Below, one piece after another: positions 35,250 to 41,139 of a stretch of DNA of 46,235 nt. The notes beneath the pieces were generated by a model that had not been told where the DNA came from, did no database searches, and saw nothing but the letters and a program-made list of their open reading frames with translations. The position numbers and the translations under genes are program-made. The stretch lies in NCBI GenBank assembly GCA_016432345.1, contig CP066685.1, positions 1 to 46,235 of the forward strand, written 5' to 3'. This DNA comes from Candidatus Levyibacteriota bacterium (GTDB lineage Bacteria; Patescibacteriota; Microgenomatia; Levybacterales; UBA12049). The first letter of the stretch is position 1. The number at the start of each line of letters is the position of its first letter.

Positions 35250-35277
35250 CTTAATACATACTACTTGCTACTAACTA
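35250..35277 (-). repeat. Four-heptad TAG unit providing the virB4 stop codon
   Basis: tagttag|tagcaag|tagtatg|tattaag. Confidence 0.85.
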
Positions 35278-37564
35278 CTTTTTCTTCCTGTTTTTGTAGA
35301 ATTTCTTGTGGGTTAGAGGTAATAAGTTCATGCTCAAAAGGGGCGGCGACAATTTTTATGGCCACATGATTTTGCCCGGCAAAAAAAAGCCCCTCTCCAA
35401 TATTTGAGGCCAAAAGCAATTGTCTTTCTCCTTGGGAAAGAAAAAAGGTTTTACTAACAATATCAATTTCCGATGCGCCTTGTTTAAGAAGAATTTGTAA
35501 TGAAGAATTAGACAAAACAGCTTTTCCATAATCGGTGGATAAGAAATCTTCCACATCTTGTGTGGCTGTTGTTAAACCTAAATAGTATTTTCGAGCCCTT
35601 TTGGCAATGCCATAGACAAAGGAGGCGCTGTCTTCGTATTTCATCATGTACCAGGCCTCGTCCAAAATAAGCAGGCGTTTTTTAAGATTTTTTCGAATGC
35701 GCGTCCAGACGAAATCCAAAATAATATGCATGGTAATTGGTCGAAGCTGGTCTTCAAGTGTTTTAAGAGAAAACACGGTTAACGGATTTGTGATATCTAT
35801 ATTTGATTGTTGGTTAAATATGCCAGCCAGACTTCCTTTAATAAATTTTTCCAGTCTTAGCGCTAGTTCTTTAGCGTTTTCATCTTCCATACCCAAAAGC
35901 ACTTTATACAAATCTTCCATCAAAGGCGGCTCTTTATTTTGAGTTTTAGGGTCTTGGGTAATACCTTTTTGTTGATATGTTTGTACTAAAGCCCTATCTA
36001 AAATTGCATCGTGTGAAGCGTCAAGGTTGCCCATAACAATTTTTAAAAGCGCGTGTAAGGAGAGAATTTTAAGCCCCAGTTCATTTTCGCCCTCTGTGTA
36101 AAGTCCAGACAAATCAAACGGATTTATTTTTATTGGAGAAGAGGGAGTAAAACTTAAATATTCACCTTGTAAGGCTTTAGTTAAATTTTCGTATTCTCCT
36201 TCTGGGTCAAGAATTATTACTTCTGTTCCCAACATAAATTGTCGCAACACCTCAAGTTTAATAAAGTACGATTTTCCAGATCCTGATTTTCCAAAAACCA
36301 CCTCGTTGGCATTTTCCAGAGAAAATCTGTCAAAAACAACTAAAGAGCTGTTTTGTAAATTAACACCATATAATATTCCTTTATCTTGGGTAAGCATGGC
36401 CGAGGTAAAAGGAAACATGGAGGCAAGAGATGTTGTGTCCATATTGCGGGTCATAAAAAGTTTATCCTGACCTAGGGGGATAGTTGTTTTAAGCCCTTCT
36501 TCTGTTTGCAGTGTAGTCGGCTTGGCAAGAACAAGCAAGCTGGCTAGAGTGGATAGAAGGCGTTTGACAGCGCTATCTAAGTCCTGTTCGTTTTCGGAAG
36601 TTAGAGTAACATAAAGACTAAAAAGAAAAAATCGCTCCAGTCCTTTGGCCAATTCTTCCTGCAGTCCCAGCGCGTCTTCCAGAGCTGCTGTTACTGTGGG
36701 ATCAACAACTTTACCTTTTTCTGCTTGGCTGGAGATGGTTACTTCCATTTCGGCGATTTTACGCCGAAGATCGGAAAGAATATCGGGAGATGAGGCAGGG
36801 TAAATAAACATCGCAATATCAAGTTCATGATCAAAATCAATTAAAGGCGAGAGCCAATTAGAAGAAACATAGCGTGGATAGCCGACAATAAAAAAAGTTC
36901 TGGCAATTTTTGTGCCAATCTTAATAGATTTAAAATCAACTTCAATAGAAGAAGGAGCAATAAGGTCAACAACAGAGTTTTTAGGATTTTGAGTGTTTAA
37001 GGCTGTGCTATGCTCATCGTTGTAAATGCTGTAGAAAATTTTCATAAGGCTTTCTTTTTCGGCAATTTTACTTCGAAGCCCCAAGCGTCCAAACTGCGAC
37101 AGCACAGATTCTGCTTTGGTATGCAAAGCCGCCTTGGCAGAAAGAAAAAAATCCTCTTTTTTAAGAGTAGTTCCGACAACACTTTTCTCCAGAGATGAGT
37201 AAGACAAGACAATGTAAAATGTTTTATCAAGTACTGTATTTATCTTAATAAGGTCTTGAACAAATAAGCGGTATTTTTTAAGATAATCAGTTTGTTTTTC
37301 TGCATCAAGACGTTTTATGTAAGATGAGACATCAACGCGTTTGTTGCGAATAACAATTTGGACCGGAAAAGAAAGCGAATTAAGAAACGAGGCAAAAGCA
37401 AAAATTTTTGCTTGTTTTTCCTCGGGGGAGAGAAGTGAAAAATTTGTGGCCTGTACTTCTATAAGCAAACAAGCATTGCCGTTTGTTAAAAGTACGATAT
37501 CCTCTTGAATATCTTTTATTTCAGTAAACTTTTGAGTGGACGCGCGAATTTTTTGGGCAGCCAT
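35261..37564 (-). CDS. virB4: VirB4/TraC-like secretion ATPase
   Basis: Walker A GKSGSGKS, 'ILDPEGEY', 'INPFD', Walker B 'LILDEAW', 'KRARKY'. Confidence 0.9.
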   Translation of the reverse strand: MAAQKIRASTQKFTEIKDIQEDIVLLTNGNACLLIEVQATNFSLLSPEEKQAKIFAFASFLNSLSFPVQIVIRNKRVDVSSYIKRLDAEKQTDYLKKYRLFVQDLIKINTVLDKTFYIVLSYSSLEKSVVGTTLKKEDFFLSAKAALHTKAESVLSQFGRLGLRSKIAEKESLMKIFYSIYNDEHSTALNTQNPKNSVVDLIAPSSIEVDFKSIKIGTKIARTFFIVGYPRYVSSNWLSPLIDFDHELDIAMFIYPASSPDILSDLRRKIAEMEVTISSQAEKGKVVDPTVTAALEDALGLQEELAKGLERFFLFSLYVTLTSENEQDLDSAVKRLLSTLASLLVLAKPTTLQTEEGLKTTIPLGQDKLFMTRNMDTTSLASMFPFTSAMLTQDKGILYGVNLQNSSLVVFDRFSLENANEVVFGKSGSGKSYFIKLEVLRQFMLGTEVIILDPEGEYENLTKALQGEYLSFTPSSPIKINPFDLSGLYTEGENELGLKILSLHALLKIVMGNLDASHDAILDRALVQTYQQKGITQDPKTQNKEPPLMEDLYKVLLGMEDENAKELALRLEKFIKGSLAGIFNQQSNIDITNPLTVFSLKTLEDQLRPITMHIILDFVWTRIRKNLKKRLLILDEAWYMMKYEDSASFVYGIAKRARKYYLGLTTATQDVEDFLSTDYGKAVLSNSSLQILLKQGASEIDIVSKTFFLSQGERQLLLASNIGEGLFFAGQNHVAIKIVAAPFEHELITSNPQEILQKQEEKVVSSK

Positions 37565-37569
37565 AAAAT

Positions 37570-38583
37570 TTAACTAAACAAAGCTTTACGCAGTTCTTCT
37601 CGGGCATCAATGCTTGTTGCTTCAATTGGCCCAATAATTTCGCCAGTCATGGTGAGTTCTAGGGCGTCAAATTTTTGCTTTCCGCTTGGATCATCAAATT
37701 CAATGGTATATACGCCGTTTAAAAGAGGAGTAGCCGAGGCAAATTGGCCGAGCTGATTTGTTTTAAACGCCCTAACAGGATTGTTGTCTTTGTCTTTTAC
37801 TTCAACTAGAATATTCGACAAAATATTGCCCCTGGCATTTTTAACAATTCCAATTAATACATTAGGCGAATCAGAAACAGGCAGTCCCACCGCATTTGTT
37901 AGGCTTTTTGCCGGCACTTTTTTAACAATAGCTTGCGTAACTTGTATTGGCGGAGCAGGCAGAGGTTCTGTTTTAACAGATGGTTGTTGGATTTGCGGCG
38001 GCGCAGTTTTTTGCTGCGCAAGCATTTGCTTAAGCGCAAGAAGCTCTTTTTCGATACGTTCTTTTTCCAAGCGGGTAGTTTGCAATTCTTGTAGAATAGA
38101 CTGATAGTTTGTTTGTTCTTTTTGTGGCTGCTGCTGGATAATTTGTTGGGTAGGCTGAGAGATAACATCGGCTTTTTTTGATTCTTCCGGCTGTTTTTTA
38201 GAAATTTGAAGAACAGGAGGTTTTGGTGTTGAGTTTGCTGGGGACGCAGTTGTTGCAATGGGTTTTAGCATGGCTTTTGTTTGTAATTGTGGAGAGTTAG
38301 ATAGCTGATATATATATTGGTTTGGAGTAAACAGCGCTTTAATAAAGTTAATAATCATAACATCCATTGGTCGTCCCTCAATTGGTAAAAAAGCTAAACC
38401 AAAGCCGAAAAAACCAAAAATAAAAGAAATCGGCAACTTAATAATTCCAGGCATGGGAGAAATATATACAACCCAGGCCATAACAACCCCGCTAATTAAA
38501 TAGGAAAATTGCTTAACAGTCATGTTGCCAATCAGTTTAAACTGAAAGCCGGTAACATCTTGTGGAATAGGATGATTTTCCAT
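37570..38583 (-). CDS. prgI: PrgI-family (VirB3-like) membrane protein with a C-terminal carboxypeptidase-regulatory-like domain
   Basis: 'HPIPQDVTGFQFKLIGNMTVKQF', two TM segments, 'GRP'; C-terminal 'KTNQLGQFASATPLLNGVY'. Confidence 0.85.
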   Translation of the reverse strand: MENHPIPQDVTGFQFKLIGNMTVKQFSYLISGVVMAWVVYISPMPGIIKLPISFIFGFFGFGLAFLPIEGRPMDVMIINFIKALFTPNQYIYQLSNSPQLQTKAMLKPIATTASPANSTPKPPVLQISKKQPEESKKADVISQPTQQIIQQQPQKEQTNYQSILQELQTTRLEKERIEKELLALKQMLAQQKTAPPQIQQPSVKTEPLPAPPIQVTQAIVKKVPAKSLTNAVGLPVSDSPNVLIGIVKNARGNILSNILVEVKDKDNNPVRAFKTNQLGQFASATPLLNGVYTIEFDDPSGKQKFDALELTMTGEIIGPIEATSIDAREELRKALFS

Positions 38584-38589
38584 ATACTT

Positions 38590-38624
38590 AAGCGTATAGC
38601 GTAAAGAAAATAGCGTATAGTTAG
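38590..38624 (+). repeat. TAGCGTA-type heptad array downstream of the four-helix-bundle gene
   Basis: aagcgta|tagcgta|aagaaaa|tagcgta|tagttag. Confidence 0.85.
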
Positions 38625-38626
38625 AA

Positions 38627-39004
38627 CTAAATGCTAGACGTTGTTACCTCCTTTCTTTTATAAACCATAACATATAGCATTTTTATAGCTTCATTTAATA
38701 ATGACTCAGCGTTTTTAAATTTTTCTTCAACTGTAAAATGAAGCTTTTTGGAGATAATTAATTGTGTTTCGAGTTCTAATGCTGATCCATATGCTATTGC
38801 GTAGAACTGTAGATATTCCTTGTGCGATCTCCTTCTGTATCCTTCTGCAATGTTTGATGGGATAGATATAGAAGATCTCCGAATTTGAGAAATGATTCCA
38901 TATATTTCCTCTTTTGGAAAAAGAGCAGTTAGTTGATATATGCACTTAACTAATTCAATAGATTTTTGCCAAACGATTAAATCTTTGTATGATGTTATTT
39001 TCAT
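38627..39004 (-). CDS. Four-helix-bundle protein (23S rRNA IVP / Avd-like family)
   Basis: 'SYKDLIVWQKS', 'FPKEEIYG..SQIRRS..SIPSNIAEG', 'AYGSALELETQL'. Confidence 0.93.
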   Translation of the reverse strand: MKITSYKDLIVWQKSIELVKCIYQLTALFPKEEIYGIISQIRRSSISIPSNIAEGYRRRSHKEYLQFYAIAYGSALELETQLIISKKLHFTVEEKFKNAESLLNEAIKMLYVMVYKRKEVTTSSI

Positions 39005-39011
39005 AATCTCA

Positions 39012-39088
39012 ATTAACTAAATACTATACGTTATGGACTATACGCTTGTAATAAAAACTATACGCTAAACGCTATTCTCTATACCCTA
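39012..39088 (-). repeat. TAGCGTA-type heptad array upstream of the four-helix-bundle gene (inverted relative to the downstream array)
   Basis: Minus strand: tagggta|tagagaa|tagcgtt|tagcgta|tagtttt|tattaca|agcgta|tagtcca|taacgta|tagtatt|tagttaa. Confidence 0.85.
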
Positions 39089-39140
39089 TGTTTATATAAT
39101 GTGAAAAATCTGATTTCAAGATTATCAAAGTAGGTCAAAA

Positions 39141-39170
39141 GGGGTACAAAATTGGGAATTTTTGTGAAAA
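39141..39170 (+). repeat. 30-bp direct repeat, left copy
   Basis: ggggtacaaaattgggaatttttgtgaaaa; 29/30 identical to 39893-39922. Confidence 0.95.
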
Positions 39171-39177
39171 GTCGATA

Positions 39178-39215
39178 TTGACAGAACAACAGCTTTGTTA
39201 TAATATAGTTATAAC
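39178..39215 (+). promoter_or_regulatory. Promoter and palindromic operator of the AbrB-Doc module
   Basis: TTGACA 39178-83, TATAAT 39199-204 (15-nt spacer, suboptimal); palindrome GTTATAA-tatag-TTATAAC 39197-39215. Confidence 0.65.
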
Positions 39216-39245
39216 CAAAATAACAAGGAGGGGGGGGTGATAGTT

Positions 39246-39494
39246 ATGTTACAAAAAATAATTCAAGTTGGTAATTCGTATGCTATAACTATACCGCGAA
39301 GATTTGCAGACGAGATAGGAATAAAACCAGGACAAAAAGTTAGAATAGATGAAGATTTTGATACCGAAACATTTACAGTGCAGCCAGTAAAATCTCAAGC
39401 AGCAAAAGGTTATCTTACGCCGGAATTCTTAAAATGGCTCAAAGGATTTAACGCGCGATATAAAGATGCGTTAAAAGAGTTAGCAAAAAAATGA
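39246..39494 (+). CDS. AbrB/MazE-type antitoxin
   Basis: 'IIQVGNSYAITIPRRFADEIGIKPGQKV'. ATG at 39246 or GTG at 39237. Confidence 0.88.
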   Translation: MLQKIIQVGNSYAITIPRRFADEIGIKPGQKVRIDEDFDTETFTVQPVKSQAAKGYLTPEFLKWLKGFNARYKDALKELAKK

Positions 39495-39886
39495 AAGGGA
39501 TTACTTATATCACTTTAGATGTTGTTTTAGCCATTCATGATGATATGGTAGAACGATATGGAGGGAGCCATGGCATAAAAGATTTAGGGTTGATTCAGTC
39601 AGCGCTTGCTCGACCACAGGCGTCATTTGGTGGAGAAGATCTTTATCCAACAATTCTTGATAAGGCTGCCGCTCTTTTTCATTCACTTATTTTCAATCAT
39701 GCTTTTACAGATGGAAACAAGCGTACGTCTATCACGACTACCGCTCGATTTCTTTACATAAATGGATATGAATTCAAAGTAGATAAAAAGGAGCTTATCG
39801 ATTTTCCGCTTCGTGTTGAGAATAAACATTTAACTATCGTAGAAATTGCCAAATGGCTTAAAACCCACGCCAGAAAAAAAAGGTAG
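39491..39886 (+). CDS. doc: Doc/Fic-family toxin
   Basis: Fic motif HAFTDGNKRT; 'GIKDLGLIQSALARP'. Confidence 0.93.
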   Translation: MKGITYITLDVVLAIHDDMVERYGGSHGIKDLGLIQSALARPQASFGGEDLYPTILDKAAALFHSLIFNHAFTDGNKRTSITTTARFLYINGYEFKVDKKELIDFPLRVENKHLTIVEIAKWLKTHARKKR

Positions 39887-39892
39887 TAAAAC

Positions 39893-39922
39893 GGGGTACA
39901 AAATTGGGAATTTTTGCGAAAA
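39893..39922 (+). repeat. 30-bp direct repeat, right copy
   Basis: ggggtacaaaattgggaatttttgcgaaaa. Confidence 0.95.
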
Positions 39923-39924
39923 TC

Positions 39925-41139
39925 CTATTTATATATTGCGTCAACATTTCCAATAGCAGAAATACCAAGCATAAAAAGCATTATTAAAAGACCCCCGCTG
40001 CCACCTTTCTTTCTTAGCGCATTAACACTCTCGGCAATTTTTCTCCTGTCTTCTTCAGACATTGACTCTGTGCCCGGAATTGCGGCAATTACAGATTCAA
40101 CATTGCCGCTTCTCACAGCCCTGATAAGCGTTTTTGCTGTTTCTAGGTCTCCAGCGCCTTGTTTTGTTTGTTCCATAAACTTTTGGAGCGGACCATCTTT
40201 TGCCAGCGCTTGCGCTGCGTATGATAATATTTTTGCTTGGGTTTCCGCCTGCGCTAATGCGTCAGTTGTCTCTTTGGTTGGATTTCTTTTAACTGCTTCT
40301 TTTGCTTGCTCTACCATTTCGTTTGCGGTTTGTTGGATAGTTTCTCCACTTACTCCTGCTTTGCTGAATGCTTCAACGACAGTTTCGAAATTAAGAAGAT
40401 TTCCTTGTTCGGCCGCACGGGTTATTACTTCCATAAAGGCTGTTTGTTGTTCTATGTCTTGAGGAGCAATAGATTTGTGAAGTTCTAAAAGATCGTTTAT
40501 GGTGAGCATGCCATTACTTTCTGCTCCTTTTATAATGACTGCGTCCATTGCTGCGCTTTCCGCAGTTCCTAAAGCAGGTATGGCATGGTCTGGGTCTTTG
40601 AGAATGTTAATTTGCATTTCCAAAACTGCTCTTTCGGGGGAATCTTTTGGAAACTGACTTAAAATAGCATCTGCTTCCGATAGTAGTTGAGCATCAAAAA
40701 CAGCAGATCTAGCAACGGTTTGTACATCATCCACCCCTTCAACACGACACGTAAAAGTTTCGTCGTCAGCGCTTTCGATATAGAGCAGTTTTCTTTGTTC
40801 GCCGTTTATTGTTAGCATTGCTGGATTGCCGTCGGTAAAATCAATGCCGTTTGGATCATTATTTGTTTTGTGATTTCCCGATGCTATGCTTCTGATAGCG
40901 TCTAAATTTTTAATTTGGTTTCTTGCGCGGATTGTTTCTGGGGTTTGCTGACTATTTCCAGTGTCAGCAGCCAATTCGTTTGCTTTTCTTCTTATGGTTG
41001 CATTGGTAACTTGTCGTAGTTCTGTTTGCTGCACGTCTTGTCTGGTTTTTTCTGGCATAGGGTTTGATTCTGGCGCTGCTTCTGGCGATGGCACAGACGG
41101 AGGTGGTTCTGGAGGTCTTATTTCTGTTGCTTCTGGCAT
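39925..41139 (-). CDS. Hypothetical acidic protein with a Pro/Glu-rich N-terminus and a C-terminal hydrophobic anchor
   Basis: 404-aa ORF with a good upstream promoter; no family recognised. Confidence 0.7.
   Translation of the reverse strand: MPEATEIRPPEPPPSVPSPEAAPESNPMPEKTRQDVQQTELRQVTNATIRRKANELAADTGNSQQTPETIRARNQIKNLDAIRSIASGNHKTNNDPNGIDFTDGNPAMLTINGEQRKLLYIESADDETFTCRVEGVDDVQTVARSAVFDAQLLSEADAILSQFPKDSPERAVLEMQINILKDPDHAIPALGTAESAAMDAVIIKGAESNGMLTINDLLELHKSIAPQDIEQQTAFMEVITRAAEQGNLLNFETVVEAFSKAGVSGETIQQTANEMVEQAKEAVKRNPTKETTDALAQAETQAKILSYAAQALAKDGPLQKFMEQTKQGAGDLETAKTLIRAVRSGNVESVIAAIPGTESMSEEDRRKIAESVNALRKKGGSGGLLIMLFMLGISAIGNVDAIYK

Follow-up and report, generated by a model that had tools for sequence, protein, structure and literature searches.

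An AbrB-Doc toxin-antitoxin cassette between two copies of a prgI-virB4 control segment in a Levyibacteriota genome: a probable insertion with long target duplication

How does a toxin-antitoxin (TA) module that encodes no mobility gene come to lie between two near-identical direct repeats, and what are these repeats? The question is raised by a locus in the DNA of a Candidatus Levyibacteriota bacterium, of which 46,235 nucleotides were analysed (the window; assembly GCA_016432345.1, contig CP066685.1, positions 1 to 46,235). The genome of the window, here called G000, is a single contig of 762,565 bp. Close to the genes prgI and virB4 it holds an AbrB-type antitoxin gene and a Doc toxin gene enclosed by two copies of a 30-bp sequence. 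A sequence-only reading of the window had taken these copies as the ends of a site-specifically integrated or excisable cassette, mobilised in trans. We found that the repeat is one half of the native control element of the prgI-virB4 operon, which resembles a type IV secretion system (T4SS). The explanation that we regard as probable is an insertion with long target duplication (ILTD), in which an AbrB-Doc addiction cassette of ~0.71 kb, reaching from promoter to stop codon, entered the distal half of the control element and ~44 bp of the element were duplicated.

The repeats, the cassette and the native control element

The 30-mer GGGGTACAAAATTGGGAATTTTTG[T/C]GAAAA was present at 39141-39170 and at 39893-39922, with 29 of 30 positions identical and a chance expectation of 0 in shuffled sequences. 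The ungapped match runs leftward to 44 nt (39127-39170 and 39879-39922, 38/44 identical) with a copy spacing of 752 nt, and thus the repeats described earlier are real and longer than first described. Within them a core of 24 nt is perfectly conserved (39141-39164 and 39893-39916). Exactly two copies of the 23-mer core were detected in the 762,565 bp of G000 when up to 3 mismatches were allowed, which identifies it as a unique sequence and not as a dispersed repeat or the end of an insertion sequence. In 60 relatives, searched in the same way with the 30-mer, no copy was found. Logan contigs from at least four other runs reproduced both junctions with 100% identity to the window. As a like architecture was also present in an independent metagenome-assembled genome (MAG) of another genus, a duplication made by the assembly was ruled out.

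The origin of the repeat became apparent from the DNA upstream of prgI, which was compared in 30 relatives of the same order (homologous loci L034-L063). In at least 27 of these 30 an element of ~80 nt, TATAAYGTGAAAAAT - 8 nt - TTSCAAGATTATCAAAGTRGGTCAAA - variable spacer - GTGAAAA in window orientation, was found once; in its short form it reads TATAAYGTGAAAAAT...TCAAAGTAGGTCAAA-~24 nt variable-GTGAAAA, and most of its carriers have no TA. In the window the element spans 39095-39170, the distal half of which coincides exactly with the left repeat (39127-39170). Between GGTCAAA and GTGAAAA the spacer measured 22-26 nt in 23 of 25 genomes and could hardly be aligned, the median pairwise identity being 46%. 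The features of the locus are listed below.

35261-38583, minus strand: operon under the element, assigned by domain search, with a VirB4/TraG-like ATPase (35261-37564) and a PrgI-family protein (37570-38583)
38584-39090, minus strand: separate indel between the element and the prgI ATG, with the gene of a four-helix-bundle protein ('23S rRNA IVS protein', where IVS is intervening sequence; PF05635/TIGR02436) at 38627-39004
39095-39126, minus strand: proximal conserved half of the element, TATAATGTGAAAAAT-N8-TTCAAGATTATC, a motif shared with most of the 30 relatives
39127-39170, no strand: left one of the two 44-nt copies, which is the native distal half of the element and consists of AAAGTAGGTCAAA, a variable spacer of 24 nt and a GTGAAAA that still has its consensus form
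39141-39164, no strand (right-hand counterpart 39893-39916): identical 24-nt core with a weak palindrome inside
39171-39245, plus strand: left end of the cassette, from a promoter scan and conservation among related cassettes
39246-39494, plus strand: antitoxin with AbrB/MazE (SpoVT) N-terminal domain and Doc-partner C-terminus (PF04014, 1.7e-11, 44.3 bits)
39491-39886, plus strand: Doc (Fic-fold) toxin of 131 aa (PF02661, 6.6e-19, 69 bits; TIGR01550 DOC_P1, 70.7 bits at a cut-off of 38.65)
39879-39922, no strand: right copy, with degraded conserved motifs (AAAGGTAGTAAAA; GCGAAAA) and the core of the left copy; the homology to the related MAG G008 ends at 39922
39925-41139, minus strand: convergent 404-aa gene, function not assigned; 2 nt separate the right copy from its stop codon (39925-39927, CTA on the plus strand)

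A single homologous element at the same position was found in at least 25 relatives from other genera that lack the TA at this place; its flanking motifs could be aligned with those of the window, in contrast to the 24-nt spacer. A Doc homologue was wholly absent from many of the relatives that bear the element, and these can therefore be regarded as empty sites. The single copy was thus retained where the TA is missing, as expected for an inserted cassette by the sequence-only reading, though the literal 30-mer is absent there. The right-hand flanks were informative as well. In G037, which has no TA, the gene next upstream of prgI is a homologue of the 404-aa gene, and its stop codon comes immediately after GTGAAAA. 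In G008, a Levybacteria MAG from another genus (JACPGP010000016.1), the right copy is followed by ~60 nt and then by a divergent 117-aa gene, and the single element of TA-less G041 is likewise followed by a homologue of this 117-aa gene (41.5% identity, E 5e-34). Each copy is still joined to its own original flank with the TA in between, which is the footprint of an insertion that duplicated a target of ~44 bp. Judged by these junctions, the native target was duplicated and the ancestral junctions persist on both sides. Direct repeats longer than 30 bp surround the insert in both genomes, with 44 nt (38/44) in the window and 45 aligned columns (42/45) in G008.

The insert itself, ~708 bp, was found to hold only a promoter, GTTATAA direct repeats, the AbrB-type antitoxin and Doc, and no mobility gene. 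The scans for open reading frames (ORFs), domains and promoters all agreed with this content, which had been proposed before, the operator being putative; as had also been noted, no recombinase is adjacent, since the domain search gave no recombinase domain among the neighbouring ORFs. The sigma-70-like promoter consists of a -35 box TTGACA (39178-39183) and a -10 box TATAAT/TAATAT (39199-39206). An AACAA/TTGTT inverted repeat lies at 39185-39199 in the left end of the cassette, and the GTTATAA repeats (39197-39203 and 39208-39214), which are conserved across cassettes, are likely the autoregulatory operator of the TA. The motif GTTATAAYATNGTTATAAC of the left end is kept in related cassettes from unrelated contexts. 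Against TIGR02609 (doc_partner) the antitoxin gave 1.2e-8, below the cut-off of that model. In the Doc ORF the motif HAFTDGNKR is intact, and we take it to be catalytic as in P1 Doc. The doc ATG overlaps the antitoxin stop codon (ATGA), and the doc stop codon TAG falls within the extended right copy. The GC content of the cassette equals that of the genome (0.363) and gives no compositional signal. Ahead of the antitoxin ATG a Shine-Dalgarno sequence and a tract of eight G (39230-39237) were observed, the tract being absent in G008; slippage on it could alter its length and hence the translation of the antitoxin.

With regard to the element, its distance of 11-17 nt from the prgI ATG in most relatives suggests that it most likely comprises the leftward promoter of the operon together with upstream control sites. 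The proximal half carries a putative leftward promoter TTGAAA-17-TATAAA on the minus strand, which was not called by the scanner, and at such a distance the prgI mRNA would be nearly leaderless in most genomes. The synteny of prgI and virB4 was kept in 36 of 41 relatives. Three GTSAAA(A) motifs, ~30-34 nt apart, were observed in the element across the order, with a spacer that is constrained in length and variable in sequence and with no match in Rfam. The Rfam search of 38400-40200 gave nothing relevant and the terminator scan called no terminator at the repeat.

The separate indel at 38584-39090 was missing in G008 and in most relatives but present in G023 (63% by tblastn). At the same spot other inserts of ~450 nt were observed in G001, G039, G019 and G009.

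Exchange of the cassette and concerted evolution of its repeats

The repeat-TA-repeat unit of G008 occupies the same spot at prgI. Over window positions 39091-39922 the DNA identity between both genomes was 88%, and the homology ended exactly at 39922; the genes beyond the right copy are unrelated. The synonymous divergence (dS) between G000 and G008 was 0.27 for the antitoxin and 0.23 for doc, in contrast to values of 2.5 for prgI and 2.3 for virB4, both saturated. As the dS of the TA is ~10-fold below that of prgI and virB4, the cassette with its repeats is ~10 times younger than the divergence of the hosts. By this comparison the repeat-TA-repeat unit moved horizontally between genera. Of the earlier proposal of an integrated cassette, the part that stands is thus an inserted and horizontally exchanged unit; a dedicated site-specific recombination site is not supported, the repeat being the native distal half of the prgI element.

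The two copies were then compared within and between the genomes in a four-way alignment. The variable core reads TTGGGAA in both copies of G000 and TCAGAGT in both copies of G008, and within the 24 nt the left and right copies differ at 0 positions in G000 and at 1 in G008. Had the duplication preceded the split of the cassettes, ~6 neutral-site differences per genome would be expected, as calculated from dS. The copies were thus homogenised by gene conversion or made anew, and on this alignment they evolve in concert within each genome. Outside the core the copies are not equivalent. Both left copies keep GTGAAAA, whereas the T is lost in both right copies (GCGAAAA in G000, GGGAAAA in G008), and in the right copy of G000 GGTCAAA is degraded too. 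This asymmetry is in keeping with decay of the right copy and function of the left. The copies of G000 are furthermore a mosaic, in which the left copy starts like that of TA-less G013 and G017 (...GGTCAAAAG) and the right copy like that of the G008 cassette (...AAAC); this pattern suggests crossovers within the repeated segment. The spacer of G000 was 72% identical to that of G008, 68% to that of G013 and 48% to that of G001, which belongs to the same genus; these identities favour neither a spacer carried by the cassette nor one native to the host.

Two further observations concern the exchanged unit. Logan contigs of the G000 organism (L127-L131, several runs) stop at 39188 and 39796, where 31-mers that also occur in the G008-type cassette end. 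This hints at a second cassette variant or a second carrier co-occurring in the samples. Runs that contain the G000 organism are SRR4343430, SRR12113390, SRR12113425 and SRR12113384. The left copy of G008 (locus L017, ~2626-2645) alone has a 20-nt insertion, CCAGCTCAGCTGGGTCAAAC, composed of a 12-nt palindrome and an 8-nt duplication of GGTCAAAC; similar hairpin inserts, CCGCGTCAGACGCGGTCA, were found at the same point in G037, L067 and L069.

Cassettes related to the one in the window were surveyed more widely. In G038 and in four metagenome contigs (L067-L070) the prgI element has a Doc relative with 76-81% identity immediately to its right, and a more distant Doc (54% identity) is placed likewise in L085. 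The contig of G038 ends within the right copy, and no contig continuing it was found. On the Doc tree, the resolution of which is poor, the cassettes adjacent to prgI are not monophyletic, so that a single origin was rejected on that tree. At least two origins point to a hot spot or a site of allelic replacement. The earlier suggestion of a family of cassettes that use this very 30-mer failed, as no other copy exists in the genome or in the 60 relatives; other genomes nevertheless have AbrB-Doc cassettes at the spot by prgI, and their Doc proteins fall into at least two lineages. Equally close cassettes at other places (L018-L020, L022, L064, L066 and others) stand in unrelated contexts, and flanking repeats are absent there. 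Around more than 40 related cassettes, flanking repeats were detected only in the window, in G008 and in L078/L080. In L078 (2183-2214 and 2972-3003; also in L080) the AbrB-Doc cassette lies between direct repeats of 32 nt (CTCCCGCGTCGCAAAGCGTAGATTTGTGAGAC, 30/32 identical) that are unrelated to those of the window. Related cassettes with unrelated repeats or with none imply that the cassette ends lack a common site and that the repeats are local target sequence. The L078/L080 cassette comes from a peat/wetland metagenome, its Doc is 67% identical, its left repeat abuts the -35 box, and a Fic-domain protein and an AAA ATPase are encoded next to it.

A scan of G000 for direct repeats returned the pair studied here, stubs at a pilin locus and a perfect 35-nt duplication. 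The latter (G000:C1 529008-529042 and 530073-530107; L132) copies the initial codons (..INKIFEKSVAKE..) of an aminoacyl-tRNA-synthetase-like gene, with an insert of ~1 kb that encodes a 209-aa membrane protein lying between the two copies, and resembles another insertion with long target duplication in the same genome. At G000:C1 47463-50621 (L136), 3-4 diverged stubs of ~46 nt (TTTTTTCAC..CATCGTAGA..TTTTGCAAG) partition small cassettes beside a tRNA-Ser gene. These cassettes include an MNT/HEPN-like pair and others, and the stubs contain a TTTTCAC motif, equal to GTGAAAA.

Routes by which the cassette may have arrived

The route of recombination, like the part that addiction plays in retention and the regulatory meaning of the element, is something that we infer, and it may be pictured as follows. 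Insertion of the cassette into the distal half of the element would have duplicated ~44 bp of the target and left upstream control sequence to both sides, with no dedicated recombinase being involved. The unit would then spread by homologous recombination of the host, probably after uptake of DNA. In this exchange homology would be provided on the left by the conserved element and on the right by the right copy, which would travel with the unit as a portable arm. This would explain why the homology between the genomes ends exactly with the right copy, in spite of different genes beyond it. The core would be kept identical by occasional gene conversion of one copy by the other. Removal of the cassette through recombination of one copy with the other would be disfavoured, because Doc outlasts the antitoxin. 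The predicted join sequences are ...GGTCAAAAGGGGTACAAAATTGGGAATTTTTGCGAAAATCC... for an empty site and ...AAAAGGTAGTAAAACGGGGTACAAAATTGGGAATTTTTGTGAAAAGTCGATATTGACA... for a circle or tandem.

Several points weigh against this account. RecA-driven exchange or conversion would have to work with an arm of 44 bp, which is short. The identical core between diverged arms, together with the mosaic (...AAAC vs ...AAAAG), also fits a reciprocal crossover inside the core. An empty-site allele of the same species was not found, look-ups by identical neighbour proteins having returned only contigs that bear the TA, and the empty sites come from other genera, in which the variable spacer cannot be aligned. 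Among the related cassettes at prgI, L068-L070 and L085 have no clear right copy but at most a AAAGTAGGTCA-like vestige at the Doc stop codon, and the left copy of G038 and L067 is truncated after GGTCAAA. With copies missing or truncated, the history is more complex than one clean event.

An alternative, which we consider unlikely, is that the 30-mer acts like an att site and that a recombinase supplied in trans, Xer-like or of another kind, excises and re-inserts a circle of 752 bp, with exchange inside the core keeping the copies identical. This would account for an identical core between diverged arms and for the mosaic, in which the right copy has a left arm like that of the G008 cassette and the left copy a right arm that is part of the cassette. 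It would likewise suit a site that is occupied by at least two Doc lineages and copies that change together between genomes, and the genome does have a tyrosine recombinase. The anatomy of the site speaks against it. The core does hold the inverted repeat AAAATT-GGG-AATTTT (ACAAAATT-GGG-AATTTTTGT) described earlier, but in folding this palindrome did not surpass shuffled sequence (z -0.8 and -0.4), and it sits in the variable spacer; it is absent or different in G008 and the relatives, most of which have best stems of 2-4 bp. Sites of tyrosine recombinases have an overlap of 6-8 bp between their inverted arms, against which a spacer of 3 nt is unfit. The supposed site is part of a native promoter, and what is conserved in it lies outside the identical core. 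The 30-mer is present in two copies in the genome and in none of the 60 relatives, and related cassettes carry unrelated repeats or none. The single PF00589 gene of the genome, its only tyrosine recombinase, lies at 94.6 kb, 55 kb away, and a search of viral contigs for relatives of the cassette Doc protein gave none.

The comparison with XerC/D-like and integron sites that the sequence-only reading had proposed therefore did not bear out its expectation. Cassettes between integron attC sites and integrative mobile elements exploiting Xer (IMEX) at dif are similar in that a small cassette with or without a promoter, often a TA, lies between similar imperfect palindromic repeats with the recombinase encoded elsewhere. 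They differ in that no attC-like structure of 55-140 bp, no IntI and no array are present here, while the palindrome has a 3-nt spacer, is not conserved and is part of a native promoter. On the anatomy of the site and the recombinase content we rejected the integron/Xer model.

It is a doubtful though conceivable extension that TA cassettes without a recombinase in Levybacteria and related bacteria of the candidate phyla radiation (CPR) are true mobile units. They would home to the ~44-nt control segment of this type IV secretion system-like locus and to comparable promoter and gene-end segments by a new kind of integration with a ruler of ~40-47 nt, and frequent cycling in and out would keep the copies identical. 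If so, the conserved promoter of a secretion system would be a dedicated capture platform for addiction or defence cassettes.

Less likely still is a resident architecture, in which the TA is old and vertically inherited and the second copy is a functional duplicate of a regulator site (for looping, insulation or control of the right-hand gene) and not a scar. The TA adjoins the element in several lineages of the order, the GTSAAAA motifs ~30-34 nt apart suggest protein binding, and the right copy of G008 lies upstream of a divergent gene, as does the single element of G041. However, old vertical inheritance conflicts with a TA dS ~10-fold below that of the flanking genes, and most relatives have no TA at this site. 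A functional role of the right copy is hard to reconcile with the loss of the conserved T of GTGAAAA in both right copies, and of GGTCAAA too in G000, where moreover the right copy abuts the end of a convergent gene with no promoter that needs it.

Separate entry into G000 and G008 by a ruler-like machinery with a fixed stagger of ~44 nt, the cores being identical because the duplications are young, is the least probable: copies near-identical within a genome and different between genomes, a G000 spacer about as like TA-less G013 (68%) as G008 (72%), ILTD lengths clustering at 44-47 bp in several bacteria (PMC2853133) and the other long duplications in G000 would fit it, but the junctions of cassette and repeat, including the Doc stop codon within the repeat, are the same in both genomes, for which common descent is simplest, and the spacer of same-genus G001 is very different (48%).

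Comparison with known systems and significance

Insertion with long target duplication of restriction-modification gene complexes was reportedly described by Nobusato et al. in 2000 (Gene 259:99). The criteria of Furuta, Abe and Kobayashi (2010, PMC2853133), whose subject is likewise restriction-modification gene complexes, are an addiction unit of <20 kb without mobility genes, flanked by repeats of >30 bp; these repeats should occur nowhere else in the genome and should correspond to one copy where a genome lacks the insert. Duplications of 45-47 bp are given there for H. influenzae, T. thermophilus and X. fastidiosa, and most of the reported cases are from naturally competent species. The unit described here is similarly a small addiction unit of <20 kb without mobility genes, between genome-unique direct repeats of >30 bp, and its 44 bp are near the reported lengths; the competent hosts of the known cases fit the spread by DNA uptake that we propose. 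The differences are that the cargo is a type II TA and not a restriction-modification system, so that the DNA break made by the cargo, which the ILTD authors proposed, is inapplicable to the Doc kinase. Furthermore, the insertion lies in a conserved promoter element that has been used as target in more than one genus, the whole unit including its repeats was apparently exchanged between genera, and the empty sites come from other genera and not from the same species. In the TA reviews among the literature searched, ILTD was cited only for restriction-modification genes.

Among other systems, effector-immunity modules of the V. cholerae type VI secretion system (T6SS) and orphans of Rhs and contact-dependent inhibition (CDI) loci are built into 'sequential displacement' arrays by homology-facilitated illegitimate recombination (PMC5361080, PMC3240628). 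There, too, a conserved upstream stretch of a secretion locus anchors incoming selfish or toxin modules, duplicated stubs are found and a recombinase is not needed. Here, in contrast, the anchor is a non-coding promoter segment, nothing was displaced, the two copies are near-identical and no orphan gene remnants are present. The minimal mobile elements of Neisseria (Saunders and Snyder 2002, cited in PMC1797815) are reported to be alternative cassettes exchanged by transformation and homologous recombination. Similarly to the present case, alternative small cassettes occupy a syntenic site between conserved flanks. The Neisseria elements, however, rely on conserved genes on both sides and are not known to duplicate their target, whereas here the right flank varies between genomes and the duplicated segment may itself be the right arm. 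Homology-facilitated illegitimate recombination with a secretion-locus anchor and the minimal mobile elements are the nearest mechanistic relatives.

The finding carries a warning for annotation, since such repeats are duplicated parts of a promoter and not att sites. If our preferred reading of an insertion with long target duplication is correct, this mode is extended from restriction-modification genes to TA cargo at a promoter hot spot. The movement of TA modules without transposase or integrase between chromosomes is still poorly explained, and the present locus is an unusually readable case. Its landing site, a promoter element, is conserved, easy to recognise and apparently empty in many relatives, the unit as a whole has passed between genera, the duplicated target could itself act as the portable arm, and the concerted evolution of the copies indicates continuing recombination between them. 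For CPR bacteria, which are poor in classical mobile elements, it suggests a testable route of gene flow.

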